Counted from the stretch's first letter, positions 11,313 through 37,497 are shown. The stretch: 64,000 nucleotides of DNA from a phage (NC_101835.1); one strand, 5' to 3'. The notes: generated by a model not told the origin, from the sequence alone. A program made the numbers and translations.

Positions 11313-11972
11313 AGTTGCCTTATTGTTACAGGTAAAATAATTACATTATTAATTATTTCTTATCTTTCTCTTAGTCATCTAATGATTCCAGTCAGTATAG
11401 TAATGTACAGTAAACATTAGACGACTAAATATTTCTCTGTTTATGATAACTCACCGTGACAATTTCGGACTGTTTACGAAAAATGTTGACACCTAAGCTG
11501 ATTTATGTTATGCAGTTTACACGAATAATTATTTTATGCAGGTATTGACTATTCCGTTATTCTGTGGTTGGAATAAATACTTTGCAGGCTATAGAATGGC
11601 GTGCGTACATGAATTCTGAGATCTGGCGGCTATAGTTATACTCGATTTTTCACGTAGAACACGCTTTTTAGTTTGTGTAAGTGTATGACTTATAAGAATT
11701 TTTACTTGTTGACAAGATATTGAAGATCTGCATCAGGTTAAAATTTGTGCAATAGCTGCATTACGTGCAATTTTGGAAGGGAAAACGGGTAAAAATAGCC
11801 CTGCTACCACACAATGAAAAGTTATGCAATAGTTATTTTACATGTATATTTGTACAGTGTGTGGGGTTGATGGCTCGTCAATTATTCCACTTGCCAGGTA
11901 GGGCCGTTTATGGTAGGAGAAGAGCAGACAAAAAGAAAGGGGCCTAAGCCCCTTGATAATTCAGTTAAAAAA

Positions 11973-12392
11973 TTATAATGATTCGTATATTTCAAAAATC
12001 CGATTTGCCAGGTCGTTACGGTAGCGGAATTTTTCCTCACGTTTGATCATAAGATCTTTATAGCCGTACTCTTTAAGCACTTCATTAACTTTATGGCGGC
12101 ATACTTTCATATTATCCTGCGCGTCACCAATAAATCTGTTGCTATGGTGCATGGCTTTAATTTCTTCTTCCAGGACCAGGGCAACTATGCGGACCGGATC
12201 AAGCTGATAGGCGGTAACATCCATGCGGCATTGTAAACGGCTTTTTACGTCTGCCACCGGATATACTGCAACCTCTTCCCCGTCAACATTGACAATAATT
12301 AGTTTACCATCGATTTCGAATCCTTTCGCCGCCGGACCGTGACAAAAAGCGTTATCAAAGCTATATGCCGGATTATTAGATTTAATGTTCAT
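11973..12392 (-). CDS. hypothetical protein
   Basis: AAGAGG RBS before ATG; last gene of the leftward array. Confidence 0.55.
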   Translation of the reverse strand: MNIKSNNPAYSFDNAFCHGPAAKGFEIDGKLIIVNVDGEEVAVYPVADVKSRLQCRMDVTAYQLDPVRIVALVLEEEIKAMHHSNRFIGDAQDNMKVCRHKVNEVLKEYGYKDLMIKREEKFRYRNDLANRIFEIYESL

Positions 12393-12536
12393 GGTGTTTT
12401 TACCTCTTAGTTAATTTTCTTACAACTTCCCTTCAAAAAAGAATATAGCAAAACTGCCGATCCCTGTCAACCAGGGATAGCATAATTTTTATGTGATCAA
12501 GGGGCTTTATTGCCCCTGACCATGTAACTTGTTGTA

Positions 12537-12800
12537 TTATTTGTTGCTCATCCAGTTTTCCCAAGCTGCCTGATAATCTGCCTCACTACGGCGGATCTCT
12601 TCTTGCTCTTCAAGGCGGATCTCTTCTTCCAGGTACCCCAAGATGTCAGCCTTTTTAGTCTGGCGCAGCATCCAGTCATCTTTTTTGCGAGTGAAGATCT
12701 TATAAGCTTTCTCGCAAACCTCTTTTTTGCTACCTTTCTGGACTTCAAGAACACGATAAGCCATATATTGAACTAATTTGAGCTGATCAAGACGTTTCAT
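12537..12800 (-). CDS. hypothetical protein
   Basis: AAGAGG RBS. Confidence 0.55.
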   Translation of the reverse strand: MKRLDQLKLVQYMAYRVLEVQKGSKKEVCEKAYKIFTRKKDDWMLRQTKKADILGYLEEEIRLEEQEEIRRSEADYQAAWENWMSNK

Positions 12801-12860
12801 GATGTTTACCTCTTTGTGCGGTTCTGATTAGTGGGCCTTTTGGCCCGTGTCATTATCTTA

Positions 12861-13133
12861 TTACTTATGGCGGCAGAATTCAAGCGTTTTTAATTGATAA
12901 TCTTCCTCAGCTTGGAGTACGACCGCCTCGATCATTTCGTTGGCATTGTTAAAGCCATAACCTTTAGCGAACTCATCCGCGCCACCTTCGTGATCATGTT
13001 CTGCGTTCATCGCTTCCACAAAATGGAATTCCAAATTGTTGAGGTAGGGGCTTGATGTTCCGTCCTCTTTTTCGATGAGATCCCAAATAGCATTAAAACG
13101 TGATTCGACTTCTTGATTAATCCAGCTTGACAT
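12861..13133 (-). CDS. hypothetical acidic protein
   Basis: GAGAGGAAAA RBS. Confidence 0.55.
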   Translation of the reverse strand: MSSWINQEVESRFNAIWDLIEKEDGTSSPYLNNLEFHFVEAMNAEHDHEGGADEFAKGYGFNNANEMIEAVVLQAEEDYQLKTLEFCRHK

Positions 13134-13344
13134 AGTGTTTTCCTCTCTCCTGGTTGTTGTGTGGGCACTTTTGCCCCTTCAAGATAAATGTTACCCCACC
13201 CCATGGCAGATGTCAACGGTTTTTATAGTTCTTATATGACAGGCAGGCCCGGTGATTGTCTCCCCCCGTCGCCAGGTGCCTGCCGTGAAACAAGTATAAC
13301 AAAAAACAGGACCATTGCAAGCCCTGTTTTGTAGTTTATAAATA

Positions 13345-13536
13345 TTATATTTTTTCGCCTATGTAGTCCGGTCGGTTTTTCTCTGTCATGCGCTTTAGCA
13401 ATTCTTGCATGTTGCTTATGGCTTGTAGTGTATCCCCTTCCAGGCTTGAATCGACATAATCAGGATCGTCTATGACCTTTCTATGATTATGATAACGCAG
13501 TACCGCCAATACCTTTCTGACTTGTTCGATATTCAT
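13345..13536 (-). CDS. hypothetical protein
   Basis: AAGAGCGG RBS. Confidence 0.5.
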   Translation of the reverse strand: MNIEQVRKVLAVLRYHNHRKVIDDPDYVDSSLEGDTLQAISNMQELLKRMTEKNRPDYIGEKI

Positions 13537-13685
13537 TTTTACCGCTCTTTAAAACAAGGTGCCAACCGTTTCCAATAGATCACTGACTGCCAGGACAATA
13601 CCGATCAGCACATATCTAACCATAAGGGGAAAGAGCGCCAATATTGCCACCACAATCCCCAAGGTGATAATTATCTTTCTCATGG

Positions 13686-13970
13686 TTAACGGTTCACGTA
13701 AGTTTTCCCGTTCACGGTTATGGGCAGATCCTCCAGGTCTGGATCTTCCTTAAGGTCGCGAGCAAGCTCACCGCACCGGATACCCTCGAATCCGTAGTAC
13801 TCTGTTGTGCCGTCCTTAAAAGTTTTAGCGGCAAGGCATAAGCGATAAGTAACCCCGATTTGATTGACGGCATGAATATCCGTTAGATTAACCTCTTTTG
13901 CCAGCTCTTTAGCCATTACAGGCGCATTAAGTCCAACAACCAGGGCAACCACTGCGATCATCTTTTTCAT
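13686..13970 (-). CDS. small secreted protein (signal peptide)
   Basis: MKKMIAVVALVVGLNAPVMA signal-like N-terminus; GAGGATGG upstream. Confidence 0.5.
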   Translation of the reverse strand: MKKMIAVVALVVGLNAPVMAKELAKEVNLTDIHAVNQIGVTYRLCLAAKTFKDGTTEYYGFEGIRCGELARDLKEDPDLEDLPITVNGKTYVNR

Positions 13971-19667: not shown

Positions 19668-19913
19668 TTATTTGACGATACCGACAAAACAGATCCCGCC
19701 TTCCCCTATATAGGCAATATCGGTAATTTTATAATTTGTCAAGATCCGCGTGTTCAGATCATTAATAAAATCGGTCATCGCGTTGGTGTGGTTGTCTTCC
19801 GTGTCTAAGGCATAATCCCAGGTGTAAACCTTTTTACGTCCGAAGCCTTTTACCATGATACGGGCGCTTTTGGTGTTGGTAGGGGCATAATATTTGGTGA
19901 TTAGTGCTGCCAT
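19668..19913 (-). CDS. hypothetical protein
   Basis: AGAGGAG RBS. Confidence 0.5.
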   Translation of the reverse strand: MAALITKYYAPTNTKSARIMVKGFGRKKVYTWDYALDTEDNHTNAMTDFINDLNTRILTNYKITDIAYIGEGGICFVGIVK

Positions 19914-19956
19914 GGTTTTAACTCCTCTGAATTAGTTCAGTGTTAACAGTATAAAG

Positions 19957-20000
19957 TTTACTTTATTGATGGCCCTGAAGTCAAGGCCATCTAAAAATAA
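19957..20000. repeat. 44-bp conserved hairpin element, copy 2
   Basis: TTTACTTTATTGATGGCCCTGAAGTCAAGGCCATCTAAAAATAA; directly follows the stop of 20003-20344. Confidence 0.55.
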
Positions 20001-20002
20001 TC

Positions 20003-20344
20003 TTACTCGTTTTCTTCCAGCTCCGCAAGCTCTTCTTTTGCTTCTTCTAACTCTGTCTGTAGTTCCTGGTATTCTTCATCGTCCTCAATATCCAGGCTGT
20101 CGATGTAGTCGCTAAATCCGCAGCGGTAAGCGATAGGATCTAGCTCCTTGAGGATACGCGACGGAAGAAAAGAAATGTTTCCGATCATAATTTCGCCGTA
20201 GATCTCGTCTAACCATTCATCATAGTTTTCGTCGTACTTGTCCTCGTCGATTTCAAAGTTATCGATCTTGTTCTCAAGGTCTGCGATCTGTTTTTTCAGC
20301 GCGGCGATCTGCATAGCTTTTTCTGCGGCGGTCATAGTAGTCAT
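20003..20344 (-). CDS. acidic coiled-coil protein
   Basis: AAAGGAGAAAACACC before ATG; E/D-rich. Confidence 0.5.
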   Translation of the reverse strand: MTTMTAAEKAMQIAALKKQIADLENKIDNFEIDEDKYDENYDEWLDEIYGEIMIGNISFLPSRILKELDPIAYRCGFSDYIDSLDIEDDEEYQELQTELEEAKEELAELEENE

Positions 20345-20395
20345 GGTGTTTTCTCCTTTTGTGTGCTCTGGGAAGTTTTCCCGTTTACGTGTTTA

Positions 20396-20423
20396 AGTAT
20401 ATCGATCTAAGTTAGTTTGTCAA
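20396..20423 (-). promoter_or_regulatory. near-consensus sigma70 promoter (TTGACA-N16-TATACT)
   Basis: Same promoter-hairpin-RBS layout as 18528-18555; hairpin GGGAAAACTTCCC. Confidence 0.5.
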
Positions 20424-20577
20424 TTAAAAATTTAAGAAAAATTTTGCAAAACTGTTAGCGCTACTCATTAACATTTGCGCCAGGATGTAACCGACAACGC
20501 AAACGATAATAGTTACCTTTGTGTATTGGCGTGTAGTGCTCATCTTAAAGCCCCCTTTTTTCGCTTAGTTGAGATTA

Positions 20578-20622
20578 GTTTACTTTATTGATGGCCCTGA
20601 AGTCAAGGCCATCTAAAAATAA
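20578..20622. repeat. 44-bp conserved hairpin element, copy 3
   Basis: GTTTACTTTATTGATGGCCCTGAAGTCAAGGCCATCTAAAAATAA; directly follows the stop of 20625-21020. Confidence 0.55.
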
Positions 20623-20624
20623 AC

Positions 20625-21020
20625 TTAGTAAGTTTTCAGTACTTTACCGTCCAACCTGTCAAGCTGGATCTCGATAGCTGCAGAAAACCTATTGTAAACC
20701 ACATCGCCCATAGAATCCAACCAGTCTATGACATTATACACCTGCTCTTTATTCTTGCAAGTCCGGATCCGTTTCATTACGTAAGACGGATCAATATTAG
20801 TGCTCCCGTTGTTGTGGTCATGCGCCTGGCCTGCTGCACTGGTTATAGATTTTACAACCACCTGAAAGGGCTTTAAGGTGCCTTTTGCGTTCATCTCACG
20901 CGCTTTTGCGGCGCGGTTGTTATATGTTACACAACGGCGGCAAATGTTGACTAAATGCATGTCAATAATTTTTTCATCGTTTGCCAGTTCGTTCATGATG
21001 CGGCGTACGTTCTTATTCAT
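20625..21020 (-). CDS. hypothetical protein
   Basis: AAAGGAAAAAAGATC before ATG (MNKNVRR); track start 21119 lies upstream of promoter and RBS. Confidence 0.5.
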   Translation of the reverse strand: MNKNVRRIMNELANDEKIIDMHLVNICRRCVTYNNRAAKAREMNAKGTLKPFQVVVKSITSAAGQAHDHNNGSTNIDPSYVMKRIRTCKNKEQVYNVIDWLDSMGDVVYNRFSAAIEIQLDRLDGKVLKTY

Positions 21021-21069
21021 GATCTTTTTTCCTTTGTGCTGGCGGGAAACATTCCCGCCTTTTGTGTCT

Positions 21070-26571: not shown

Positions 26572-27150
26572 CTAAAAGTATTCATAGAGGTATCCATCGG
26601 GAGCTGGAATTTTTTCATGAATGTAGTAACCAACATATATTCCGGTTTCTCTGCTGCAAGAGTTGTGGGATACCCATTCTTTAAGAACGTTGCCATTCAT
26701 GTCCAACCTCCTTACATTTTTGCACCGTCTACCGCTGGTGCTTCTATGTAACAGAATATCCTCTGTCTGCTTGTCTTTATTTTCTCCCCAAGTCGTTAAA
26801 CGGATATTATCAAAAGAGTATCCTTTGAAATCGTCTATCCTGTCACAAGAAGGCTTTTTCCTTTTGTCGTATCCGCTGGCTACCCATTGGTCATACAACT
26901 CTTTGTAACCGTTTAGGTATAGCCACTCTTTAAACTCTTTTTTGGTGTAAGTCGGAGGAGGGTGACCTCTTTGCTTGCTGTTGCACTTTTGAGTCTTGTA
27001 CAACACACGTATTACACCTTTTTCTGAAGAGTCTTTAGCAAATTGGTCAGCCTCCCTGCTGGCCTTCTTACAGCACTCTTTGCACGTTGATTTGTTGCTG
27101 GTGTAGAAGTCGGAGGCCTCCTTGTCCTCCCCACAACGTTTGCATTTCAT
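26572..27150 (-). CDS. zinc-ribbon + HNH-like (DRID variant) endonuclease-like protein
   Basis: N-terminal CKRC..CKEC; C-terminal CDRIDDFKGYSFDNIRLTTWGENKDK resembles HNH_3 motif with R replacing the first His. Confidence 0.45.
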   Translation of the reverse strand: MKCKRCGEDKEASDFYTSNKSTCKECCKKASREADQFAKDSSEKGVIRVLYKTQKCNSKQRGHPPPTYTKKEFKEWLYLNGYKELYDQWVASGYDKRKKPSCDRIDDFKGYSFDNIRLTTWGENKDKQTEDILLHRSTSGRRCKNVRRLDMNGNVLKEWVSHNSCSRETGIYVGYYIHEKIPAPDGYLYEYF

Positions 27151-27158
27151 AACTGACC

Positions 27159-28385
27159 TCAGAAAGGGATCGAGTCATCAAAGGCGTACTGTGCTGGATT
27201 CTGATCCATCGGGTCATCTTCCTCATCATTTACAGGAGGAGCGTCTACAGTGTTTTGCTGTGGAGCTGCTTCCTGTTTGGCAGCCTGAGGTTCTTGATGG
27301 TCAGTTGACCCAGCACCGTTCTTGATCCAATCGTACAACGGCTCAGCCAGATTAGTCAAGACATCTTTTGCTTCTGCAGTAATTGCCACTGCAAAATCAT
27401 CAACTTTCGTTTTCTTGTCAATACGGCGACAAGCGTTCAACACCGCATTACCGACACTGGCACCTACTTCATCTTCAGTTCGGTTGGTGGCTTGAGCATA
27501 CTCTTTCTTAAGCTCAATAGTGACTACGTGTAGTGTTTTAGCCACTCCTAATGGGTCGTCTACCTTAAACCCGCGATCCAGGATGATCTGCAACGCATTG
27601 ATGCTATGCCCCGTTTCCACACCGATAGGGTCGTAAGAGGATTTACGCTTGCCACCGGAGCCTTGAGTGCCGTTCTCTGCCTTAGGAGGATAGGCCTTGA
27701 AACCACTGATAATGTTTCCAGTGTCTTTGTCAACAATGGCTGCAACACGACCACCTACCACCAGGTCTTTAAGCTGCTCATCAGTGACAACCATAGCACC
27801 TTCGCCAATCTTGTGGTCATTAACAGTAACCACGTTGCCAACAATCTGAGTCACATCACCATAGATGCGTAAAACGTCCTGATTGGCATTCTGCTGAGGT
27901 TTCTGCTTCTGGCCTTGTGATTGTGCACCTTGTTGCTGTTTTTGCTGCTGAGTCGCTGCTGGAGCCTCTCCTGCACCCAGCTTGACCATCTTAGCCAGTG
28001 AGCCTTTGTAATAGGTCTTACCGTTATGCTCGTTTGCCTTCAAAGGGATATTTACGATCCATCCTGGCGTTACGGTTTCCCACTTGTCATCAATTTTAAC
28101 AGAGACAGAGTCTTGATGACCCGGTTTAAGCAACTTATCGCCCATACTGATCCAAACTTCTTCACCACCTTGAAGCAGGTTATCAGAGGAATCCAGTTCA
28201 GAAATCAGTAAAGAGATGGTGTGGCTGGATTCAATTTTCTTACCTTGCCACACAGTGGTTTTAATACCTGTTGTAGGATCAGCACCTTTGATAGGCTTGA
28301 TGCTGACACGTTTAATCATGCCGTGAGCCAGTAAAACAGTTTCACGCGGATTCATCGGGTTAGCGAATTGTTGAATAACGCTCAT
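27159..28385 (-). CDS. putative ssDNA-binding protein with SSB-type acidic C-terminal tail
   Basis: C-terminus ..DDPMDQNPAQYAFDDSIPF resembles E. coli SSB tail DDDIPF; Q-rich linker; sits in the replication block. Confidence 0.5.
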   Translation of the reverse strand: MSVIQQFANPMNPRETVLLAHGMIKRVSIKPIKGADPTTGIKTTVWQGKKIESSHTISLLISELDSSDNLLQGGEEVWISMGDKLLKPGHQDSVSVKIDDKWETVTPGWIVNIPLKANEHNGKTYYKGSLAKMVKLGAGEAPAATQQQKQQQGAQSQGQKQKPQQNANQDVLRIYGDVTQIVGNVVTVNDHKIGEGAMVVTDEQLKDLVVGGRVAAIVDKDTGNIISGFKAYPPKAENGTQGSGGKRKSSYDPIGVETGHSINALQIILDRGFKVDDPLGVAKTLHVVTIELKKEYAQATNRTEDEVGASVGNAVLNACRRIDKKTKVDDFAVAITAEAKDVLTNLAEPLYDWIKNGAGSTDHQEPQAAKQEAAPQQNTVDAPPVNDEEDDPMDQNPAQYAFDDSIPF

Positions 28386-28750
28386 TATTTGTCTCCTTGT
28401 TCTTCGTTAGTGTTTGCCGTGTGTGCAAACCCTGCTTGAATTAATTTGTCCTGAACTTGAGCCAACAGGCCCATTGCAAAACTTGTAGTCCCAGAGAGGG
28501 CCATTAGCATATCTCGTTGTTGAGCTACCCAACCTAAGGCATAGTCCAAACGACGATATTTTTCTTCTTCACGCAGAGCCTGAAATAATTGTTCAGCCTC
28601 CGGTTGTTGTGTGAGCTCCTGAAGTCTTCCCATGAAAGAAGAAAGCACTAGCAGAAGAGACACTTGATCTTTACTTAACCCTAAGAAAAATTCTTGAGGT
28701 TGTTCTTGCTCGTTCATCGCAACCGACGCTTGATCGTTCATTTGTTCCAT
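28385..28750 (-). CDS. hypothetical protein
   Basis: GGAG RBS, ATGA coupling to SSB-like gene. Confidence 0.5.
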   Translation of the reverse strand: MEQMNDQASVAMNEQEQPQEFFLGLSKDQVSLLLVLSSFMGRLQELTQQPEAEQLFQALREEEKYRRLDYALGWVAQQRDMLMALSGTTSFAMGLLAQVQDKLIQAGFAHTANTNEEQGDK

Positions 28751-28833
28751 TATGGAATCTCCGATTTTATTTGAACAACATAGAAGGAGACACTATTTTA
28801 GCATCCCCTTCTGTAAATTACAATAGGTATTTG

Positions 28834-29079
28834 TTAGCCAATCACTTCGAAAGTTCCCCAATTCCCGTCCAGCAGGCAGGTGATCGGATCTCCATCGTCG
28901 TCAAAGATTTCAAAGTTTTCAGCATCCAGGATGTGGCCCTCGAACACAATACTCTCGTCGCCACCACCAGAAATAACAGCGTATTCCTTACCTTGAGTCA
29001 AGTTTTGACACCCTTTGCCACCAAAACCTACTTCCACACAACGTACTTTCTGTCCTGCGCGAGCAACTACTTCAGCCAT
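28834..29079 (-). CDS. hypothetical protein
   Basis: AGGAGA RBS. Confidence 0.5.
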   Translation of the reverse strand: MAEVVARAGQKVRCVEVGFGGKGCQNLTQGKEYAVISGGGDESIVFEGHILDAENFEIFDDDGDPITCLLDGNWGTFEVIG

Positions 29080-29096
29080 CTTAAGGTCTCCTGATA

Positions 29097-29398
29097 TTAA
29101 TCGTCAAGTTCAAAATAGATTTTAACAGCTTCATCAAAGATTGGAATCCCGACGTTGTTGATAAGCTGCCAAACTACCATATCTTTACCTGGATCTGGGA
29201 GAATGTCAACCTTTCTCCATGCGCTGTATATCCAGTTCGGACCACCTTCTGCACTAACTGGCAGATTTTCACCAGCTTCCTGTAGATACTTATACAGCAA
29301 AAGATATTCTGGATACTCTAGAACACTGTCCTCTGTAGTATATAGCAGTTCACGGTATACTTTTAAGAACCCTGCTGGGGTAATGTTTTCAGTCTTCA
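29097..29398 (-). CDS. hypothetical protein
   Basis: AGGAGAAGCGGCAA before ATG (MKTENI). Confidence 0.5.
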
Positions 29399-29778
29399 TT
29401 TGCCGCTTCTCCTGCATTCATCAGGTCTGCCATAGCGTCACCCACGAAGAGAACAACCACATCGTTGACAGCGTCAGCATCATCTTTGTTGACGTTGCTG
29501 AATTTAGGACACACAGCAATGATCATATAGACACCGTTACCAACCTGGACTGTCCGTGTGGTGCACATCATGGCGGTATTTGTGCCTTCTTTGAAGGCGA
29601 AGCCTTGAAGACGCTCCTCTAAAGTGTTACCGGTAGACTTCAGAAGCGCCAGCTCGTCCAAGGCATAGATGATATCTCCGGAAGTTAGTGTTGCCTTGCC
29701 ATCAGACACCATAATCACTCCATCAGTACCGTCAAGCTTAGAGGCTTCAAAGATATCAATATCCCAAATATTTTTCAT
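29389..29778 (-). CDS. hypothetical acidic protein
   Basis: GAGGAAGCG RBS. Confidence 0.5.
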   Translation of the reverse strand: MKNIWDIDIFEASKLDGTDGVIMVSDGKATLTSGDIIYALDELALLKSTGNTLEERLQGFAFKEGTNTAMMCTTRTVQVGNGVYMIIAVCPKFSNVNKDDADAVNDVVVLFVGDAMADLMNAGEAANED

Positions 29779-30050
29779 TACGCTTCCTCGTCGTCTAAGT
29801 AATCATCAAGAGAGGCGAAGATTTCACCGAAGTATTCTAAGATTTCTAGCTCACGTGTGGTGCAGCAAACATAATCGCCTTGGTCGTCCTTAATAGTGGC
29901 CTCTTTACCCAGAATATCTACTTCAAGTTCATCGTTCAACAGGACGGCCCCTGTGTAAACTTTGTCAGCTGTGCAGTCCCGAAAAGCAGAGTCCTTCTCC
30001 AGATAGTCTGGCTTAACCTTGGCTTTAATTCGTTGGTATTGTTTGGTCAT
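29778..30050 (-). CDS. hypothetical protein, tandem paralog pair (copy 2)
   Basis: AAAGGGGACCACAGCA before ATG (MTKQYQ); KPDYLEKDSAFRDCT / IKDDQGDYVCCTTRE matches 30114-30368. Confidence 0.5.
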   Translation of the reverse strand: MTKQYQRIKAKVKPDYLEKDSAFRDCTADKVYTGAVLLNDELEVDILGKEATIKDDQGDYVCCTTRELEILEYFGEIFASLDDYLDDEEA

Positions 30051-30071
30051 TGCTGTGGTCCCCTTTCGTTT

Positions 30072-30100
30072 TGATAGGGCCATTATATTAGGCCCTATCA
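30072..30100. repeat. perfect 10-bp-arm palindrome
   Basis: TGATAGGGCC-ATTATATTA-GGCCCTATCA between two paralogous genes; no flanking T-run. Confidence 0.5.
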
Positions 30101-30113
30101 CTGTTGTCAAGTA

Positions 30114-30368
30114 TTAATGTTCAGGTTTTACAAAAACGACTTCATTAACAGTGCACCAGACAGAGTCTCCTTCATCATCTTTAAAGGTAAGGCACTGTGC
30201 TGAGTTTTCCAGCTCATCGATCTCTTCTTGTGATAAAGGGGCCCCTTCTTCCAGAAGGGCTTTTACCAGAGGGTTCTCACAAAACTCTGCTTCATAAATT
30301 GCACCGACTGTGCAATCTTTAAAAGCTCGGTCATTTGCAACGCATTCTGGCTTCAAAGTAATTTTCAT
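30114..30368 (-). CDS. hypothetical protein, tandem paralog pair (copy 1)
   Basis: GAGGAGA RBS; KPECVANDRAFKDCT / FKDDEGDSVWCTVNE. Confidence 0.5.
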   Translation of the reverse strand: MKITLKPECVANDRAFKDCTVGAIYEAEFCENPLVKALLEEGAPLSQEEIDELENSAQCLTFKDDEGDSVWCTVNEVVFVKPEH

Positions 30369-30444
30369 CTTGGCAGTCTCCTCAGTTATTTAAAAATCAA
30401 CGCTCTGTTTGTGTGAAGCATCTTATATCTAATCTTACTTCTTG

Positions 30445-30816
30445 TCAATGGCTATTTTCAATCAGCCACACAGGGTCGAGGTAAATTTGTTGGCGTGTTG
30501 CCCAATGACAAACTTCATTGTACATCTGAATCTCTTTGTCTGTCAATTCACGAATAGGCTCATCTATACCCTCATTTTTGTGGTAATCCCAGTCGGCATC
30601 GATTTCCCACAGCCATGACTTGTTGTCACCACGCTTACGCACACAGAAGTCACCAGGACGGCCTGCCAATGCATTTAAGAACTCGTTCTCCGCTCGCTCT
30701 TGGAGAATACTAAGGAGCAAAACGTTAGAACATGACCGTAGAATATGCTTCAGCTCACAATCATCAATCTCAACTTCAATACGTTGTTTGACTGTGTGGG
30801 TACCTTTTACTAACAT
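30445..30816 (-). CDS. hypothetical protein
   Basis: GAGGAGGTAGG before ATG (MLVKGTH). Confidence 0.5.
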   Translation of the reverse strand: MLVKGTHTVKQRIEVEIDDCELKHILRSCSNVLLLSILQERAENEFLNALAGRPGDFCVRKRGDNKSWLWEIDADWDYHKNEGIDEPIRELTDKEIQMYNEVCHWATRQQIYLDPVWLIENSH

Positions 30817-30826
30817 CCTACCTCCT

Positions 30827-31021
30827 CTAAACGAACTCTGCAAGGGTTGTGTTGTTCACTGCACCGCAGTAAATGGAGTATCCCAGCCCATTAGAGTGCA
30901 GAAACCACGGCGTGCCGAAATTATCTTTCACGTAGACATCGCCGTTGCTTGTAAAGGGCCAATATTCTTCACCAAGGGTGAAATACCTACTCATACCCTC
31001 AGCCAGATACTTTACTTTCAT
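30827..31021 (-). CDS. hypothetical protein, tandem paralog trio
   Basis: GAAGAGGG RBS; shares ..KDNFGTPWFL.. motif with the next two genes. Confidence 0.5.
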   Translation of the reverse strand: MKVKYLAEGMSRYFTLGEEYWPFTSNGDVYVKDNFGTPWFLHSNGLGYSIYCGAVNNTTLAEFV

Positions 31022-31245
31022 AGGCCCTCTTCAACAGCTACAAACTTGGCAAGCAGGGTGGTTCCGTAGATATGATACTCACCGTTTGCCAGATGGGAGA
31101 TAAACCAGGAAATCCCTTCCTCGTCTTTAATCATCTTGTTTGCACGATTTTTATCGTAATAAACCTCGTAGGTCTTTCCTTCTTTAAAGAATGACAGGTC
31201 TGTCATCTTTTCTTCTACAAAAGTAGCTTTAACCAAAGTTGTCAT
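31018..31245 (-). CDS. hypothetical protein, tandem paralog trio
   Basis: AAGGAGA RBS; IKDEEGISWFISHLANGEYHIYGTTLLAKFV. Confidence 0.5.
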   Translation of the reverse strand: MTTLVKATFVEEKMTDLSFFKEGKTYEVYYDKNRANKMIKDEEGISWFISHLANGEYHIYGTTLLAKFVAVEEGL

Positions 31246-31526
31246 TGATCGGTCTCCTTCTTGTTAAGTCTGAATACTGCAATAATAGCATTCCCAAGGT
31301 GCAGTGTCAAATCATTTCCAAGATACCACAACATTCCACGGTCATCTTTAATGAAAGGGTAACAATCTGGTGCCTTCCAGACATTGTACACTTTCCCAAC
31401 CTGAAAGAAATCAGGCCCTGTTGGGATTTTGGTGCCAGGCCACACTTGGGATGCCTGAACACACTCCACCTGCATAATAACAGGGATAGTCATAGATGTA
31501 AATGTTTTTGTTGGTTCTACTACCAT
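31242..31526 (-). CDS. hypothetical protein, tandem paralog trio
   Basis: AGAGGAGAC before ATG (MVVEPTK); IKDDRGMLWYLGNDLTLHLGNAIIAVF. Confidence 0.45.
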   Translation of the reverse strand: MVVEPTKTFTSMTIPVIMQVECVQASQVWPGTKIPTGPDFFQVGKVYNVWKAPDCYPFIKDDRGMLWYLGNDLTLHLGNAIIAVFRLNKKETDQ

Positions 31527-31575
31527 AAAAGTCTCCTCTTTGCTCAACAACACTTCCATGTGTTGATAGTTTACA

Positions 31576-31929
31576 TTAGTGACAATCACCCCAATTACGA
31601 CCACACAAGTATTCACCTGTGATCTGGAACGGGACTCCCATCATTTTAGAAGCTTGCCAGAAGCAATGTACCACCATTTCGCCCACAGGACTCCAGATAA
31701 GTTCAAGCTTTCCGTCATCGTTCAAGATAGGATCGTACACCGTGTTTCCGTTTCTGTCAACCACTTCGTTTCCGTTTTCATCCTTGCGTGCCTTTTTGTA
31801 CTTATGACCGTCGAACACATGAAGTTTGGCCTCCTGCTCTGCCTTAAATGCTTCCAATTCTTCAATTGTGTCGAAGGTGTACACAGTCTTATACTTAGGT
31901 GTGTCAGGGACCTGAAGTTGGTACTCATC
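31576..31929 (-). CDS. DNA polymerase (family A), C-terminal segment / putative exon 2
   Basis: Begins DEYQLQV (completes HDE motif C with the upstream exon) and ends ..CGRNWGDCH, like the C-terminal His of T7 gp5 / Pol I; no SD before it. Confidence 0.6.
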   Translation of the reverse strand, partial: DEYQLQVPDTPKYKTVYTFDTIEELEAFKAEQEAKLHVFDGHKYKKARKDENGNEVVDRNGNTVYDPILNDDGKLELIWSPVGEMVVHCFWQASKMMGVPFQITGEYLCGRNWGDCH

Positions 31930-32205
31930 CAATAGTTCAGGTAGGTCGTTAAGCTACCCCGCACCATTACGTGCATAGCCATACGTTTTCACGTAGGATC
32001 GGACCATCTCATATTCCTATGATAAGCAACCACAGGAATCCTCCCATTTCGACCGCACTTGCTGGTCTACTTCCTTTCGGAATGGCCTCTGAGCGTTCGC
32101 TCTTTTGAGCGCTTCGTTGCGGATTACCTTGCCATAAGGTTTAGGCTTCCCGCAGTTAAAGAGGTTATTCGACATAGATTACTCTATGAAGCCACAATGT
32201 TATTT
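31930..32205 (-). other. putative group I self-splicing intron in DNA polymerase gene
   Basis: 276 nt between ..YYH and DE..; 5-prime exon ends in U, intron ends in G; GUGG near intron start can pair with exon CCAU; P-like AACUGCGGGAAGCC and Q-like AAUCCGCAACG; GAAA-capped hairpins. Confidence 0.5.
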
Positions 32206-34629
32206 ATGGTAATAAATAATACGACGAACACCTTCATCGTACCACCCACGCTTCACCATTTGGTGGTGCATAAGTATCCCAACCAAGTCACACAGCGATG
32301 CACCACCATTCTGTTGATATGCATTAAGTAAAGAGTGTTTAGATCGGGTCCAGATGGCATGACCATCAAAAGAGTAGATAAACTTCTTACCCGTTGCTTC
32401 CCAGAATTTCTCCAGATCCTCTTTACGGCCCTTAAGACCAGGGTTGGCATCCCAAAGCGCATCGATTACCCTTTGTCCCAACTCTGGAGAGATGTCCAGC
32501 ATATCTGCAACTTTATCTTTTTGTGCCCCGTACATAACCCCATACGTGATAGGTTTACCGTCGTTACGGGACACCTCTCTACCTGCTACTTTTGTATATG
32601 CCTCAGCATTGTTTTGGTGTGCGTCCCCGTTACTTACAACATCGTAATACAGGCCGTTGTCGAACTCAAAGGCACCCCAAGCCCCGATAAGCTGCTCTAA
32701 GTTGGACCCGTCAATACCGATCTCAAAGTATCCCGGAGGAACACCCCACAGACTACGCATCTCTTTACCCATAACCACTTTAGGAGATGGTTTAGGCATG
32801 TTTGCACAAATACTGTGTTTCTGTCTGGAAGTGTTTGTTAATCCAGAGCTTTTAGCAGGAAGCTTATGGTCAATCTTCAAACGTGGGTGATTAAGAAGAC
32901 CAGTGTCAACCTTATCCTCCTTGATTGGATCAAGTACCGATCTGCGGTTTCGCAATGATAACCATAAGACGATATCTTTAGCCATCTCTCCGTTCAATTT
33001 TTCAAGATTCGGACACAGGTGTCCAAACGTATCTTTCAGTTGCGGAGAAGTAATAAGTGCCCTAGCTTTTCTACGTATTTTCCCGAATACTTCCTTTTTA
33101 ATCCTTTCGGAGTTAGGAAAGCTTCGGAACTTGTGCACTGTTGTCTGAAACTTAGCATCAGTTTTGTTCCAGAAGTTGATAATTAGGTCACAATACTCTG
33201 ACTCTAAAAGCTCGTCCATGTATGCATATACTCGTGCATCAACATCTGCATCAGGTAGAGCTTTCTTCTTGCTGTCTTTAGTTACATCCTTAGTTCTCCA
33301 CATTGTCGGAAGCCAACCAGCACTGATCAGGTATCGCTTAATGTCGTCCTGATTGCTGATTTTCATAGGTATCTTGCAGTCAGGCATTCGCTTCTGCTGC
33401 AGATCGCTTATTGCCTGATCCATCAGCTCTTTAGGCAAAGGTTGTGGTGTGGAGGTGCCCTTAATATAACCTCTCAAGAAATCAGCCATCTTGTCGGGGT
33501 CTTTGCAGCCCATCTCTTCACACCATTTTATCCCCATCTTACTGACATCTCCTGTGGAGGTAAATGCTCTCTTAGGCGGGGCTTTGAACTCTAGAGCGCT
33601 CATGTCTACAGGATAGCCAAGCTTATCTTTTAACCATTTCCAACCATTATTAGAGATTGTCCCGTCTTGGTTAAACGGCTTTTCAGGGAACTTGGGCCGC
33701 TGAGACATTGACAGCTCTTTTAAAGGCAGTTGTGGTTCAACACGATCAGCGATTTCTTTCATCCACGCATCGCAACGGTCACGTAAAGCAATAGCTCCAT
33801 CTATGTCGAAGTATACACCCTGACGGGCCTGCAGCTCCATCAGGAAGTGCTGCAGCATGCCTCGACGTAATGCGTTCTTCCAGGTGATCTTCTTGAACCC
33901 TTTCGGCTTCTCTTTGGCAGGATCGTACATAAAGTTCTGCATGTCAGATTTGCCGTAGAATACACCTTTTGATTCCGCTACCAGTTCTTTCCAGAGCAGC
34001 TCCTGGATGATAACGTCCTCAAATACACGATCCACATACTTCCACAACGGAAGATCGCGCCAGTCATCAATTTGAACTTTCTGGTTACCAAGGGCATAGC
34101 CCCATGCCATAAGGCCGTGGGGACCAACAGGCTGCATTTTCTTAGTAACCGGGTTGAATACAGCGTCCGGACAACCTTTTGGTAAAGGGCGATCAGGCCA
34201 CAAGATTCGGCTCATCGCCAACGTATCAAACAGGTTAACCTGGTGGTCGTTGATAGTCCCCATGCATTTAGGATCACGGAACATATCAAAATGAATACCG
34301 GATAATCTTTCCATCAGCATAAAGTCATAACTGTAGCAGTTATGGCAGTTCAAAGCTGTTGGTGACCAGTCGGAATTGCCTGTAAGCCAACCTTCCAACT
34401 CCGAAAAATCTGCTATGCGAACTTCAAAACCTTTATAAAGAGTTTTCTTTGCCAGAATGAAGTTCTTAGCCTTTTCTATATCCTCCTCGGAGTAGTGTGT
34501 GCGGTCATTTAGAGGAAGGAACAGCATAAAACGGTTCTTATTCAGCTCTTTAAACAGGCCGCAGTGATAATAAAGATCTGGATCTTCCAAAAGCCCTGAG
34601 GCCTCCAGATCGAAGCACCAATTACTCAT
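32200..34629 (-). CDS. DNA polymerase (family A, T7 gp5-like), N-terminal 808 aa / putative exon 1
   Basis: N-terminal FDLEASGL..HCG exonuclease motif like T7 gp5; motif A region IGIDGSNLEQL; motif B KPITYGVMYGAQ; ORF stops at ..RIIYYHK, i.e. at motif C. Confidence 0.85.
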   Translation of the reverse strand: MSNWCFDLEASGLLEDPDLYYHCGLFKELNKNRFMLFLPLNDRTHYSEEDIEKAKNFILAKKTLYKGFEVRIADFSELEGWLTGNSDWSPTALNCHNCYSYDFMLMERLSGIHFDMFRDPKCMGTINDHQVNLFDTLAMSRILWPDRPLPKGCPDAVFNPVTKKMQPVGPHGLMAWGYALGNQKVQIDDWRDLPLWKYVDRVFEDVIIQELLWKELVAESKGVFYGKSDMQNFMYDPAKEKPKGFKKITWKNALRRGMLQHFLMELQARQGVYFDIDGAIALRDRCDAWMKEIADRVEPQLPLKELSMSQRPKFPEKPFNQDGTISNNGWKWLKDKLGYPVDMSALEFKAPPKRAFTSTGDVSKMGIKWCEEMGCKDPDKMADFLRGYIKGTSTPQPLPKELMDQAISDLQQKRMPDCKIPMKISNQDDIKRYLISAGWLPTMWRTKDVTKDSKKKALPDADVDARVYAYMDELLESEYCDLIINFWNKTDAKFQTTVHKFRSFPNSERIKKEVFGKIRRKARALITSPQLKDTFGHLCPNLEKLNGEMAKDIVLWLSLRNRRSVLDPIKEDKVDTGLLNHPRLKIDHKLPAKSSGLTNTSRQKHSICANMPKPSPKVVMGKEMRSLWGVPPGYFEIGIDGSNLEQLIGAWGAFEFDNGLYYDVVSNGDAHQNNAEAYTKVAGREVSRNDGKPITYGVMYGAQKDKVADMLDISPELGQRVIDALWDANPGLKGRKEDLEKFWEATGKKFIYSFDGHAIWTRSKHSLLNAYQQNGGASLCDLVGILMHHQMVKRGWYDEGVRRIIYYHK

Positions 34630-35360
34630 ACTGTCTCCTCCTGTGTCTTCTCAGCATTCTTTCTTGCAGCTATTGCATCGTCCCTGTTCTTGAAATACCC
34701 AAGGCATTTCCTTTTACCATCTACATAAATTCTGGCTACCCATCTTTCATGGGTTTTATCCCAATTCACCCCTGAGCAACCGCTGGTGTTATTATACTGC
34801 ACGGCTCTTCCACTCTTGTGCGAAAAACCATTATCTTCGAAGAACTTTCTTGCCCACTCTGCCTCTTCAAAAGTTCTGTACTGGCCTAGCCAGACCCTTT
34901 CACCTACAGAGTCTGTGCCTTGAGCTACCCATGCCCCTCTTTCTTCAGAATAGTGCACCCCGACCCTGCCAGATTTGTTGTTGCTACGAGGTATCTTGCA
35001 ACTTTTCTTTTTGTTATCTGTAGGTTCGAGTAGTTGCAAATTTTGAATACTGTTGTCAGCCACACCACCTGTTTCCCTTATCTCCTTGATGTGGTCAACC
35101 TCATACCCTTCCGGTACAGGACCGTTAAACATTTCCCAGATTATAACGTGGGCACCTTTAGTGCAATGCTTTCCTAGACTAACCACAGGCCTGCCATCAG
35201 CATCTTGCCCCTTGTCAGCTCTGGAGCCTGCTGAAGTTTTAACATATCCTACACCGCTGCCTGCCAGAATGTCTATCTTCCAAAAAAGATTTTGACCGTC
35301 ATACTCCAATATTTCTGACCACAAGTGATTAGCTACACAGTGATCTCTGAACTCGTTCAT
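34626..35360 (-). CDS. HNH homing endonuclease with two AP2 domains
   Basis: HNH core GYEVDHIKEIRETGGVADNSIQNLQLL..N; AP2-like repeats SGRVGVHYSEERGAWVAQ and SGCSGVNWDKTHERWVARIYVDGKRKCLGYF; stop overlaps polymerase start. Confidence 0.75.
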   Translation of the reverse strand: MNEFRDHCVANHLWSEILEYDGQNLFWKIDILAGSGVGYVKTSAGSRADKGQDADGRPVVSLGKHCTKGAHVIIWEMFNGPVPEGYEVDHIKEIRETGGVADNSIQNLQLLEPTDNKKKSCKIPRSNNKSGRVGVHYSEERGAWVAQGTDSVGERVWLGQYRTFEEAEWARKFFEDNGFSHKSGRAVQYNNTSGCSGVNWDKTHERWVARIYVDGKRKCLGYFKNRDDAIAARKNAEKTQEETV

Positions 35361-35418
35361 AAAGTGTTCTCCTTAAAGGGGAGGCGGTTGTACTACCCCT
35401 CCCACTCTTTGTTAAACA

Positions 35419-37497
35419 TTAAAAAGGCGTTTCATCATCCTCAAAACCAGGGACCGGGTCAGAGGATGGATCATCGTACTGGAGGTCTTCCTGCGTGTCA
35501 ACAGGCTTAACAGTAGGAGTTACAACCTTATCAGCCACAACCTTGCCCATAGGTGTTTCTACAACTGCATGCTCCTGATCCTCAAACATAGCCTGAGGTC
35601 TCCAAACAACCTCCCCACCTTCTCCGTCTGTAAACATTTGCATTTCTTTGTCCCAGTACCAATTACTGGCATCATGGAACTTACCTGTATGTGGGTCCAT
35701 AACTAAAGTGTCAGCAATACCTAAAGTTTTTGCTGGACGGTTTTTAAGACCTACCAGACGGACACGCCCACGAGAACGATCCACCATTTCTTCGGCCTCG
35801 ACACCTATGACTACCCAACTCAACTGTTCAAGCCCAGCCGATCCTCGCAAATTCTCTTTTCGCACAGGATACCAGAAAGGTAATGGGTTACCATCCTTGT
35901 CCTTAGGGGGCACAATCTCTGTACGTTTGAGGTGAGCGATCACCAAGATAAACACGTTAAACTGCTTACAAAACGCAGCCAGCTGAGTCATAGCCATGTC
36001 CAGTTCTTTTCGCTCATCTTTAACATTAAGCCCTGAAATTACCATAGACAGGTGATCCAGCACAATATAGCGACAATGGTACAGGCAGACCATTTGCTTA
36101 AGCTTGGTAATCAACTCGTCCACTGGAATAGACCCGAAATGTTTGAACACTTTGATTTTTCCAGCTTTTGCCCATGATTGGTGAATCTCTGCATGTTCTT
36201 GATCAGTTAAAAACTGGCTAGGATCTTCAACAAACTCTTTAACATCAAACCCTAACTGGTTTGCATACAAGGAGTTAATTGCTTCCTCTGGGTCCTCCTC
36301 AAGATGAATCATGCATAGACGATCATCCTCTTCGTAGTCATCGGCCTTTGGACATGTCGGGTCCATTAGGTATCTTGCAATACAGTGTTCCAGTTTTTTG
36401 GCTACAGTTGTTTTACCACCTCCTGATGGACCTGTAAGCATTACGAGTGTCCCTTTGTGCAAGCCTTTTAGCATTTTTTGCAGTTTTGGAAACTCTGCGC
36501 TGATATCTACCCCGTTGGAAGTCTTTTTCCGCAAAGATTCGATAGAGAAGTCTTCTAAATCCGACACAGCATCAGGCACATACTTAACAGGATGCCGGAA
36601 CATGTTTACAATATCTTCCAGCTTTTTAGCCTTCAGCATGTCACGGATATCTTTTACACCATCAGGGTCGTTTACCTCGCCAGGATATTCCACGTGGTAA
36701 ACGTTGTCAGCCATCAAAAATGCTGCAATATTATGTGTGGCTTCAACACCTTTGATAACGTGTTTTTGCTTCTCTACCTCGTTAGCCGCATCGTTGTCCA
36801 TTGCAAGGACCACTGTTCCGTAGCTACGGATAAATTTCTCATTGTTTGCAAAAGTATCTACTGCGTTTGCACATCCACAGTTAATTCCAACAAAAGGTAG
36901 GCAGGGTTTTCCTGCCAGATCACCCCCGTTGATAACTGCATCGATCCCGTCCTGGACCTCTTTAGCCCACTGTTTCACCTTTGCCGGGGCTTTAGCGTTG
37001 GTGAGAATCCCTTTTACTTGTATCTGATATGCAGCCTGCCATGCTGCAATAACATCACCTTCCCCCTCACAAACGTTAATCTGCTTACGGTTGTTAGAAG
37101 ATGCACACAGCTTTTGCCCAAACATTTGGGAGTTAGCCTTTACGATCCCAACCGTCGTAAAGTGCCCACGTTGCTCTTTGGGGATCGTCCAGTCACGCTT
37201 TTTGAAACCGGACAGATTCCCGTAGCGGTCGTAATATGGGAAATATGTTGCAGTAACTGTCACACCGTCTTCTTGGGACAATGCTGATCGCACACCAAAA
37301 TATTGTGCAGCCATCAGACCGATATTTTGTTGTGGGACAGGGACGATTTTAGTATTTTCTAAAACAGTCTCTACAGTTTCAACTTCTTTTTCATCACGAT
37401 AGTCTCGTTTCACACTTCCCCCACTTTTATACTTAGTTGCTTTCGGGTTTGGCTCACCGAAACGGTTGTATGCAGATGCCATAAATTTACTTCCCAT
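35419..37497 (-). CDS. bifunctional DNA primase-helicase (T7 gp4-like)
   Basis: TOPRIM residues CEGEGD and VLAMDNDAANE; Walker A LTGPSGGGKTT; Walker B YIVLDHL; acidic C-terminal tail ..FEDDETPF. Confidence 0.85.
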   Translation of the reverse strand: MGSKFMASAYNRFGEPNPKATKYKSGGSVKRDYRDEKEVETVETVLENTKIVPVPQQNIGLMAAQYFGVRSALSQEDGVTVTATYFPYYDRYGNLSGFKKRDWTIPKEQRGHFTTVGIVKANSQMFGQKLCASSNNRKQINVCEGEGDVIAAWQAAYQIQVKGILTNAKAPAKVKQWAKEVQDGIDAVINGGDLAGKPCLPFVGINCGCANAVDTFANNEKFIRSYGTVVLAMDNDAANEVEKQKHVIKGVEATHNIAAFLMADNVYHVEYPGEVNDPDGVKDIRDMLKAKKLEDIVNMFRHPVKYVPDAVSDLEDFSIESLRKKTSNGVDISAEFPKLQKMLKGLHKGTLVMLTGPSGGGKTTVAKKLEHCIARYLMDPTCPKADDYEEDDRLCMIHLEEDPEEAINSLYANQLGFDVKEFVEDPSQFLTDQEHAEIHQSWAKAGKIKVFKHFGSIPVDELITKLKQMVCLYHCRYIVLDHLSMVISGLNVKDERKELDMAMTQLAAFCKQFNVFILVIAHLKRTEIVPPKDKDGNPLPFWYPVRKENLRGSAGLEQLSWVVIGVEAEEMVDRSRGRVRLVGLKNRPAKTLGIADTLVMDPHTGKFHDASNWYWDKEMQMFTDGEGGEVVWRPQAMFEDQEHAVVETPMGKVVADKVVTPTVKPVDTQEDLQYDDPSSDPVPGFEDDETPF

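Follow-up and report, generated by a model that had tools for sequence, protein, structure and literature searches.

Two proteins encoded in the replication module of a phage end in similar acidic peptides which terminate in Pro-Phe, and we consider it probable that they are the protein that binds single-stranded DNA (SSB) and the gp4-type primase-helicase of a T7-type replisome, each ending in a Pro-Phe docking motif placed on a long disordered linker. The sequence analysed is a stretch of 64,000 nucleotides from NC_101835.1, called the window in what follows. The two open reading frames (ORFs), of 408 amino acids (aa) (27159-28385) and 692 aa (35419-37497), lie on the minus strand and their products end in ...NPAQYAFDDSIPF (last residues AFDDSIPF) and ...PVPGFEDDETPF (last residues FEDDETPF), respectively. 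Phe-terminated acidic tails had been predicted on both ORFs from the DNA alone (hereafter the original prediction) and were found exactly where they had been placed. The region 27159-37497 presents 96-98% identity to the rV5-like E. coli myophages FFH2, WalterGehring, JES2013 and RudolfGeigy, an identity that makes the phage of the window a Vequintavirus (rV5-like E. coli phage).

Rarity and conservation of the two tails

The presence of the paired tails is not a product of chance. When the 64-kb window is translated in all six frames, the motif [DE][DE]x[ITSEV]PF turns up at two places, both in these genes and both right before the stop codon. Shuffling the window 1000 times gave a mean of 0.012 occurrences of motif plus stop, and never two of them. 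No further occurrence of the motif was found in the remaining ~95 kb of a sister genome.

Relatives of the 408-aa protein were collected by a word-indexed search which gave 56 sequences, down to 29% identity. PF is the very end of 44 of these close homologues, and another 11 of the 56 have PF followed by an extension. Only 11 columns of the alignment of this family are invariant down to 29% identity, P407 and F408 being among them, and the consensus of the tip is DFDDDIPF. A deep search with hidden Markov models over 1.84 billion representatives returned 246 clusters (50% identity) at E <1e-3, 147 of which were listed; 109 of these 147 distant representatives end in PF, mostly as D[FW]DDD[IVL]PF. 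As regards the primase-helicase, PF after an acidic run closes 112 of 120 homologues (down to 42% identity, Vibrio phages included), and two more have PF and then the extension. Conservation in homologs was the test that the original prediction had set for the tails, and they are kept in those of both families. Moreover, the tips are far better conserved than the linkers carrying them, and the tails of the primase-helicases vary upstream of the tip.

The two tips differ in a systematic way at position -3: 55 of 55 close SSB-like sequences have I, V or L there, and of 114 primase-helicases 111 have S, T, E or C. The consistency of this difference between a hydrophobic and a polar residue argues that the tips are not interchangeable copies of each other, and suggests that their binding specificities are akin without being the same. 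Neither the conserved Pro-Phe tip of the primase-helicases in this clade nor the systematic way in which it departs from the SSB tip seems to have been reported before.

Other endings were also observed among the distant SSB-like members. Four of them (P0254, P0272, P0279 and P0288) have a T7-like end, ...D-x-DF, six (P0275, P0277, P0289, P0305, P0315 and P0320) end in ...PW, and six (P0221, P0222, P0229, P0235, P0253 and P0273) in PF plus one residue (PFN, PFS). The sequences suggest several tip dialects within the SSB-like family.

The proteins that carry the tails

The 408-aa protein matches phrog_4477 over residues 1-408 (E 2.1e-172), a PHROG of unknown function, and no match was obtained by Pfam, NCBIfam or PDB sequence search. 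As these sequence searches found nothing, its OB folds were revealed by fold comparison only. An AlphaFold2 model built on the family alignment (mean pLDDT, the predicted local distance difference test, of 75.6) presents an all-beta N-terminal domain, a small second barrel which is missing in the short members of the family (~270-310 aa), a confidently modelled bundle of four helices (253-270, 278-300, 304-321 and 328-355) and a disordered acidic tail at residues 363-408. The helical domain is the best conserved part of the family, with invariant G255, G259, H260, N263, G312 and L316. A Q-rich stretch at residues ~143-170, ATQQQKQQQGAQSQGQKQKPQQNANQ, lies between the two barrels and is predicted to be disordered. 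The protein is therefore modelled as two OB-type barrels plus a conserved helical domain, and its predicted OB fold is structurally similar to the bacterial SSB core. The unusual length and the Q-rich linker had both been pointed out in the original prediction, which proposed to look for an OB fold in this ORF; the length, the linker and the fold are all there, the fold in the predicted structure.

A Foldseek comparison with viral models yielded only homologues that are uncharacterised and weak matches to SSB-like proteins ('helix destabilizing', DUF2815; E 4e-3 to 6e-2). No other SSB was found in this type of genome, where tblastn with E. coli SSB, T7 gp2.5 and T4 gp32 was empty and none is annotated. 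Since neither a canonical SSB nor a gp32 or gp2.5 can be detected or is annotated, the 408-aa protein is the best candidate for the SSB of the phage. The architecture of the family (N-terminal OB fold, helical domain, disordered acidic linker and D[FW]DDD[IVL]PF tip) is present in the protein of the window, and a homologue already bears the name 'single strand DNA binding protein' in one recent GenBank record at least. Membership of the gp2.5 family was considered and rejected: hhalign against T7 gp2.5 gave a probability of 0.2% and there was no match to Pfam DUF2815. In the phi92-like contig L032 (IMG/VR) the SSB-like frame stops early (...AAIRGMSTPSTRS) and the PF tip plus extension are encoded further on at the same locus, which suggests a frameshift or an assembly error.

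The tip of the 408-aa family is, by residue comparison, that of the C-terminus of bacterial SSB and not T7-like. E. coli SSB ends in NEPPMDFDDDIPF in PDB 1eqq_A, also given as ...SNEPPMDFDDDIPF, and many members of the family end in (E)PPMDFDDDIPF, P0246 having the same last 13 residues as E. coli SSB. When the family profile was compared with E. coli SSB by hhalign, the tip alone was aligned (last 13 columns, E 2.9e-6). The tip of the window, AFDDSIPF, has drifted slightly from the family consensus, which equals the E. coli SSB end. Like bacterial SSB, the 408-aa protein combines an OB fold at the N-terminus with a disordered linker in which Q, P and G abound and with a tip of the same consensus; unlike it, the phage protein adds a second barrel and the four-helix domain, and by sequence it stands outside the bacterial SSB profile PF00436 (no membership by Pfam or NCBIfam).

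The SSB-like identity and the tip of this protein were already known. Bas52_0087 of phage RudolfGeigy (Bas52) is needed to trigger the DRT10/UG17 reverse-transcriptase defence, and was called SSB-like from Phold and AlphaFold2; two OB folds were described in it, its C-terminus was given as disordered, and its tip, FDDDIPF, was likened to the end of E. coli SSB (bioRxiv, 30 April 2026, 10.64898/2026.04.29.721553). The same preprint reported the escape mutations D252V and Y351C, at positions assigned to an oligomerisation interface, found that DRT10 is modulated by the dosage of SbcB and proposed an interference with this host exonuclease. The protein of the window is identical to Bas52_0087 in 404 of 408 residues (99%), occupies the same genomic position and retains both escape positions, D252 (252-equivalent) and Y351, in or at the four-helix domain. 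Our models agree with the architecture given in the preprint; the tip differs, being AFDDSIPF in the window instead of SFDDDIPF. The preprint does not deal with the tail of the primase-helicase (the word 'primase' occurs 0 times), with the size of the family or tail statistics, or with the 15-residue extension described below.

The 692-aa protein is assigned by sequence to the T7 gp4-type primase-helicases. It matches phrog_239 (E 8e-160) and Pfam DnaB_C/AAA_25 over residues 331-589, T7 gp4 is its best PDB relative (E 1.6e-16) followed by Twinkle, and the TOPRIM motifs CEGEGD and MDNDAAN are present. An N-terminal Cys4 zinc-binding domain is missing, there being no Cys in the first ~130 residues (37108-37497 in the window). 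The zinc-binding domain is used by T7 gp4A for the recognition of priming sites, and in lacking it the protein of the window resembles T7 gp4B or Twinkle. Many homologues are longer, with 975-1025 aa (P0062-P0064, P0103-P0151), owing to an insertion of ~300 aa; Pfam gave no intein or other match for the insertion in the two homologues scanned (P0063 and P0120).

The DNA polymerase gene of the same module is interrupted by a group I intron, detected with Rfam RF00028 at 31980-32215 (64.7 bits, E 7.5e-16). The boundaries of the intron were placed so that splicing restores motif C of the polymerase (...IIYYH|DEYQLQV). The spliced product has 924 aa and its only PDB sequence matches are T7 gp5 chains (E 5.9e-16). 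The annotation of WalterGehring joins the parts of the same polymerase gene and places a homing endonuclease within it.

The replisome is like that of T7 in having acidic, Phe-ended tails on both the SSB and the helicase, and a polymerase and a primase-helicase that are relatives of gp5 and gp4. It is unlike T7 in that the tips end in Pro-Phe and not in Asp-Phe, the primase-helicase has no zinc-binding domain and the polymerase carries large insertions. The original prediction had extended the T7 logic to this phage; the relationship of polymerase and helicase to gp5 and gp4 bears it out in part, but the SSB-like tip is of the bacterial type and the two tails differ at position -3.

Proposed docking partners, rival explanations and the extension

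Both tips are read here as docking peptides because their core-linker-tip anatomy matches the tether shown for E. coli SSB-Ct, the C-terminal tip of SSB, and for T7 gp2.5 and gp4. Each would be a flexible tether, in which a long disordered linker stands between a folded core that handles DNA and an acidic, invariant tip with a Pro-Phe-COOH end. The terminal Pro-Phe and its carboxylate would insert into a basic-rimmed pocket of the partner, and the acidic run would provide electrostatic steering. By analogy with T7, both tails may dock on the polymerase; the T7-like polymerase of the phage would be the likely partner, giving helicase-polymerase coupling and SSB hand-off as in T7. The SSB-like protein could also have as partners those host enzymes which read the tip of the host SSB, for example exonuclease I (SbcB). 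The two sets of partners, the phage polymerase and the host enzymes, are both plausible and not mutually exclusive.

In T7 the polymerase offers a front basic patch (K587, K589, R590 and R591) to which the tail of gp2.5 is anchored, and 6P7E shows a DTDF peptide from gp4 in the bound state (PMC12339929). In our alignment KWKRRW of T7 stands against GKKF of the window, so that two of the four basic residues are kept (R590/R591 as KK) and the other two fall in a deletion; in the relatives ICP1 and L007 the patch reads KK or KR, with RK further on. The segment is compatible with a T7-like tail site without demonstrating one.

Several observations weigh against the docking of both tails in a T7-type replisome. 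The basic patch is half conserved and lies within a segment of the polymerase that is generally conserved. Phages rV5, Seunavirus and the phi92-like phages have 15 residues beyond the Phe, and this extension, if not removed, would obstruct any pocket made for the free carboxylate of the Phe. The phi92-like phages keep the SSB tip DFDDD[IV]PF but have a zinc-finger-type primase-helicase without an acidic PF tail. In K1F, a relative of T7, gp2.5 ends in GGDYDF but gp4 ends in EDTISV, and because this gp4 has no terminal Phe the paired tails are not obligatory even among T7 relatives.

The phi92-like primase-helicases (L008, L009, L032-L037) all end in a small residue plus Tyr (...GSY, ...GAY, ...SNY), which may be a different C-terminal aromatic motif. 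Vibrio phage ICP1 (L013; loci 19882-21048 and 11884-13932) has a gp4-like primase-helicase with 48% identity to that of the window, ending in DQDGDEPF, and the gene that closes the same operon codes for a protein of 388 aa (phrog_2544) that ends in DLDDSIPF. Besides the tip, no sequence similarity was found between this protein and the SSB-like family, and it may, judging from its sequence, represent a second, unrelated SSB family with the same tip. From the phi92-like phages and ICP1 it follows that the pairing recurs with this clade of helicases and that the SSB tip is independent of it.

Mimicry of the host SSB is an equally good reading of the SSB-like tip as docking on the polymerase, since in some members of the family up to 13 residues of the tip are the same as in E. 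coli SSB. In its exclusive form, which we regard as possible though rather unlikely, this tip would recruit, compete for or sequester host SSB-interacting enzymes (ExoI/SbcB, chi, PriA, RNase HI, RecQ and others), the tail of the helicase would act on a subset of these enzymes, and the phage polymerase would not be a target. E. coli SSB ends in exactly the residues of the family consensus, (PP)MDFDDDIPF, and SSB-Ct (DDDIPF) is a known interaction hub in bacteria, its partners including DnaG and chi (PMC3632105, PMC5872125). Moreover, the DRT10 preprint ties the ortholog to SbcB-controlled metabolism of single-stranded DNA, and the phi92-like phages retain the SSB tip though their helicase is tailless. 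However, the tip of the helicase is polar where the SSB tip has I, V or L, the replisome is otherwise self-sufficient and of T7 type, and the link to SbcB was made in the preprint without an assay of the tip or of SbcB binding.

The acidic tails could also act mainly in cis, as DNA mimics which fold onto the DNA-binding surface of their own protein or onto the helical domain of a neighbour. They would then tune the affinity or cooperativity of binding to single-stranded DNA, as for T7 gp2.5, T4 gp32 and E. coli SSB, and such a role is compatible with the other explanations; as the main function of the tails we find it improbable. The tail of T7 gp2.5 does sit in the DNA-binding groove and its removal raises the affinity for single-stranded DNA (PMC12339929), and the four-helix domain, the best conserved of the family, holds the DRT10 escape positions that the preprint assigns to oligomerisation. 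Against this, the AlphaFold2 model docks the tail nowhere (pLDDT 29-45 over residues 363-408), and an invariant terminal Pro-Phe is unneeded for charge mimicry alone.

The most unusual thing seen in this analysis is the association of the 15-residue extension with a homing endonuclease. The Phe is not terminal in 11 of the 56 close SSB-like relatives, in 4 of the 147 listed distant ones and in 2 of the 120 primase-helicases; the residues after it are AP[IV]GLQY[GA]xxx[IV][HY]x[LI], or in general form AP[IV]GLQY-x3-[IVL]-[HY]-x-[ILF]. The last codons of the extension overlap the start of the endonuclease gene in rV5 (gp209, 423 aa, and gp208; L003 2744-2772), in L019 and in L006 (2940-2995). 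In rV5 and L019 this happens at the end of the SSB-like gene, and in L006 both the extension and the endonuclease are placed at the end of the primase-helicase gene. In rV5 and L006 the Q-Y-G codons contain the ATG of the endonuclease, which in L019 comes 18 nucleotides further downstream. Between the SSB-like and primase-helicase sites, the zinc-ribbon N-terminal module of the endonuclease presents 63% identity over 48 aa.

It might be thought that this mobile DNA produced the likeness of the tails, a homing-endonuclease cassette which landed after the PF codon having brought the coding sequence of one gene's tail into the other gene by co-conversion. The same extension plus endonuclease module is indeed found after the PF of the SSB-like gene (rV5, L019) and of the primase-helicase gene (L006), but helicases of lineages that have no endonuclease there, ICP1 and other Vibrio phages (42-48% identity) among them, also conserve the PF tail, the tails keep family-specific residues at position -3, and the two genes of the window both have free PF ends. 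We consider co-conversion extremely improbable, and it was rejected as the cause of the likeness because the helicase tails are kept without an endonuclease and have their own residue at -3.

A neutral footprint of the homing endonuclease was likewise rejected as the explanation for the extension, because the peptide is preserved in lineages that have no endonuclease. Such lineages include SSE121, GAP31 and the phi92-like phages. Seunavirus, Mydovirus-type and phi92-like phages carry it as APIGLQYGRNF[IL]HC[IF] with short remnants of the endonuclease frame alongside. In these lineages the frame of the peptide has survived numerous synonymous substitutions (Arg as AGA, CGT or CGA) while the endonuclease frame gains replacements and stops, and for this reason the extension is taken to be under purifying selection. 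The window represents a third state, in which the endonuclease is present and the stop codon comes directly after PF (junction 27150-27161).

We also put forward, as a tentative and on balance unlikely proposal, that both tips are one SSB-Ct-like code written on two replisome proteins, with the 15-residue peptide as an optional, selectable cap and with a shared homing site. The extension would then mask the free carboxylate or add a second docking motif, and its DNA would be the landing site and the translation start of a zinc-ribbon homing endonuclease that colonises the 3' ends of both genes. If this were true, the tail would be a regulated interaction switch and, at the same time, a shared homing target created by the convergence of two tails.

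The replication module and significance of the tails

All genes of interest are carried by the minus strand as one replication module (Table 1). From upstream to downstream it comprises rIIA and rIIB, a PIF1-like helicase, a methyltransferase, the primase-helicase, an HNH-AP2 endonuclease and the polymerase, followed by ~12 small ORFs, a 121-aa ORF, the 408-aa protein and the zinc-ribbon/EndoVII-like endonuclease.

Table 1. Positions in the window of the tail-bearing genes, their parts and the associated genes
Feature	Position	Strand	Basis
SSB-like protein, 408 aa (ortholog of Bas52_0087; phrog_4477)	27159..28385	-	ORF and phrog_4477 match
N-terminal OB-fold domain, residues 1-138	27972..28385	-	predicted structure
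Q-rich disordered linker, residues 140-169	27879..27968	-	pLDDT <50; length varies among close homologues
Second small barrel, b1-b2-b3-helix-b4-b5 (OB) topology, residues 171-232	27690..27875	-	predicted structure
Conserved four-helix domain, residues 253-355	27321..27629	-	helix pLDDT 83-96; invariant residues
Disordered acidic linker, residues 356-400	27186..27320	-	pLDDT 29-45; sequence poorly conserved
SSB-Ct type C-terminal tip AFDDSIPF	27162..27185	-	stop codon 27159-27161
gp4-type primase-helicase, 692 aa (TOPRIM and DnaB-like helicase, without zinc-binding domain)	35419..37497	-	phrog_239, Pfam and PDB matches
Primase-helicase C-terminal tip FEDDETPF	35422..35445	-	stop codon 35419-35421
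Poorly conserved linker, helicase core to tip, residues ~612-684	35446..35664	-	Pfam/PDB helicase matches stop near residue 590-611
T7-like family A DNA polymerase exon 1, residues 1-808, ending ...IIYYH	32206..34629	-	phrog_17, phrog_8888
ORF-less group I intron, 276 nucleotides, in polymerase gene	31930..32205	-	Rfam RF00028 and motif C restoration
DNA polymerase exon 2, 117 aa	31576..31929	-	phrog_8888 positions 185-295; splice reconstruction
Zinc-ribbon/EndoVII-like homing endonuclease directly 3' of SSB-like gene	26572..27150	-	phrog_1035, E 6e-33; aligns with rV5 gp208

The gene for the endonuclease with HNH and AP2 domains (34626-35360, minus strand) is wedged between those of the primase-helicase and the polymerase. 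Its stop codon overlaps the ATG of the polymerase, and it is not at this place in some relatives (RudolfGeigy, 241Ecol014PP). The 121-aa ORF (28385-28750, minus strand; phrog_7310, without family annotation) has a one-base overlap with the start codon of the SSB-like gene, and its counterpart is the upstream neighbour of that gene in Seunavirus SSE121 (25% identity, E 9e-12); its product may be a functional partner of the SSB-like protein. About 20 unannotated GenBank records, MG0656xx, are named 'Campylobacter phage' (host Campylobacter jejuni) and are 96-98% identical to E. coli rV5-like phages, so that their host assignment looks doubtful.

The gain from this analysis is incremental, the tethering principle being decades old and the SSB half being contained in the 2026 preprint. 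It gives a function assignment to a protein which is mostly 'hypothetical' in GenBank records and in PHROGs and whose family amounts to 246 clusters at 50% identity, and a large group of E. coli phages, therapeutic and model ones, appears to have this protein as its sole candidate for an SSB. The T7 rule of an acidic, Phe-ended tail on SSB and helicase would recur, with a bacterial-type Pro-Phe tip, in distant T7-type replisomes such as those of the rV5-like phages and ICP1. Concrete tail peptides are thereby available to be tested against the phage polymerase and the host SSB partners, which also bears on the triggering of DRT10.

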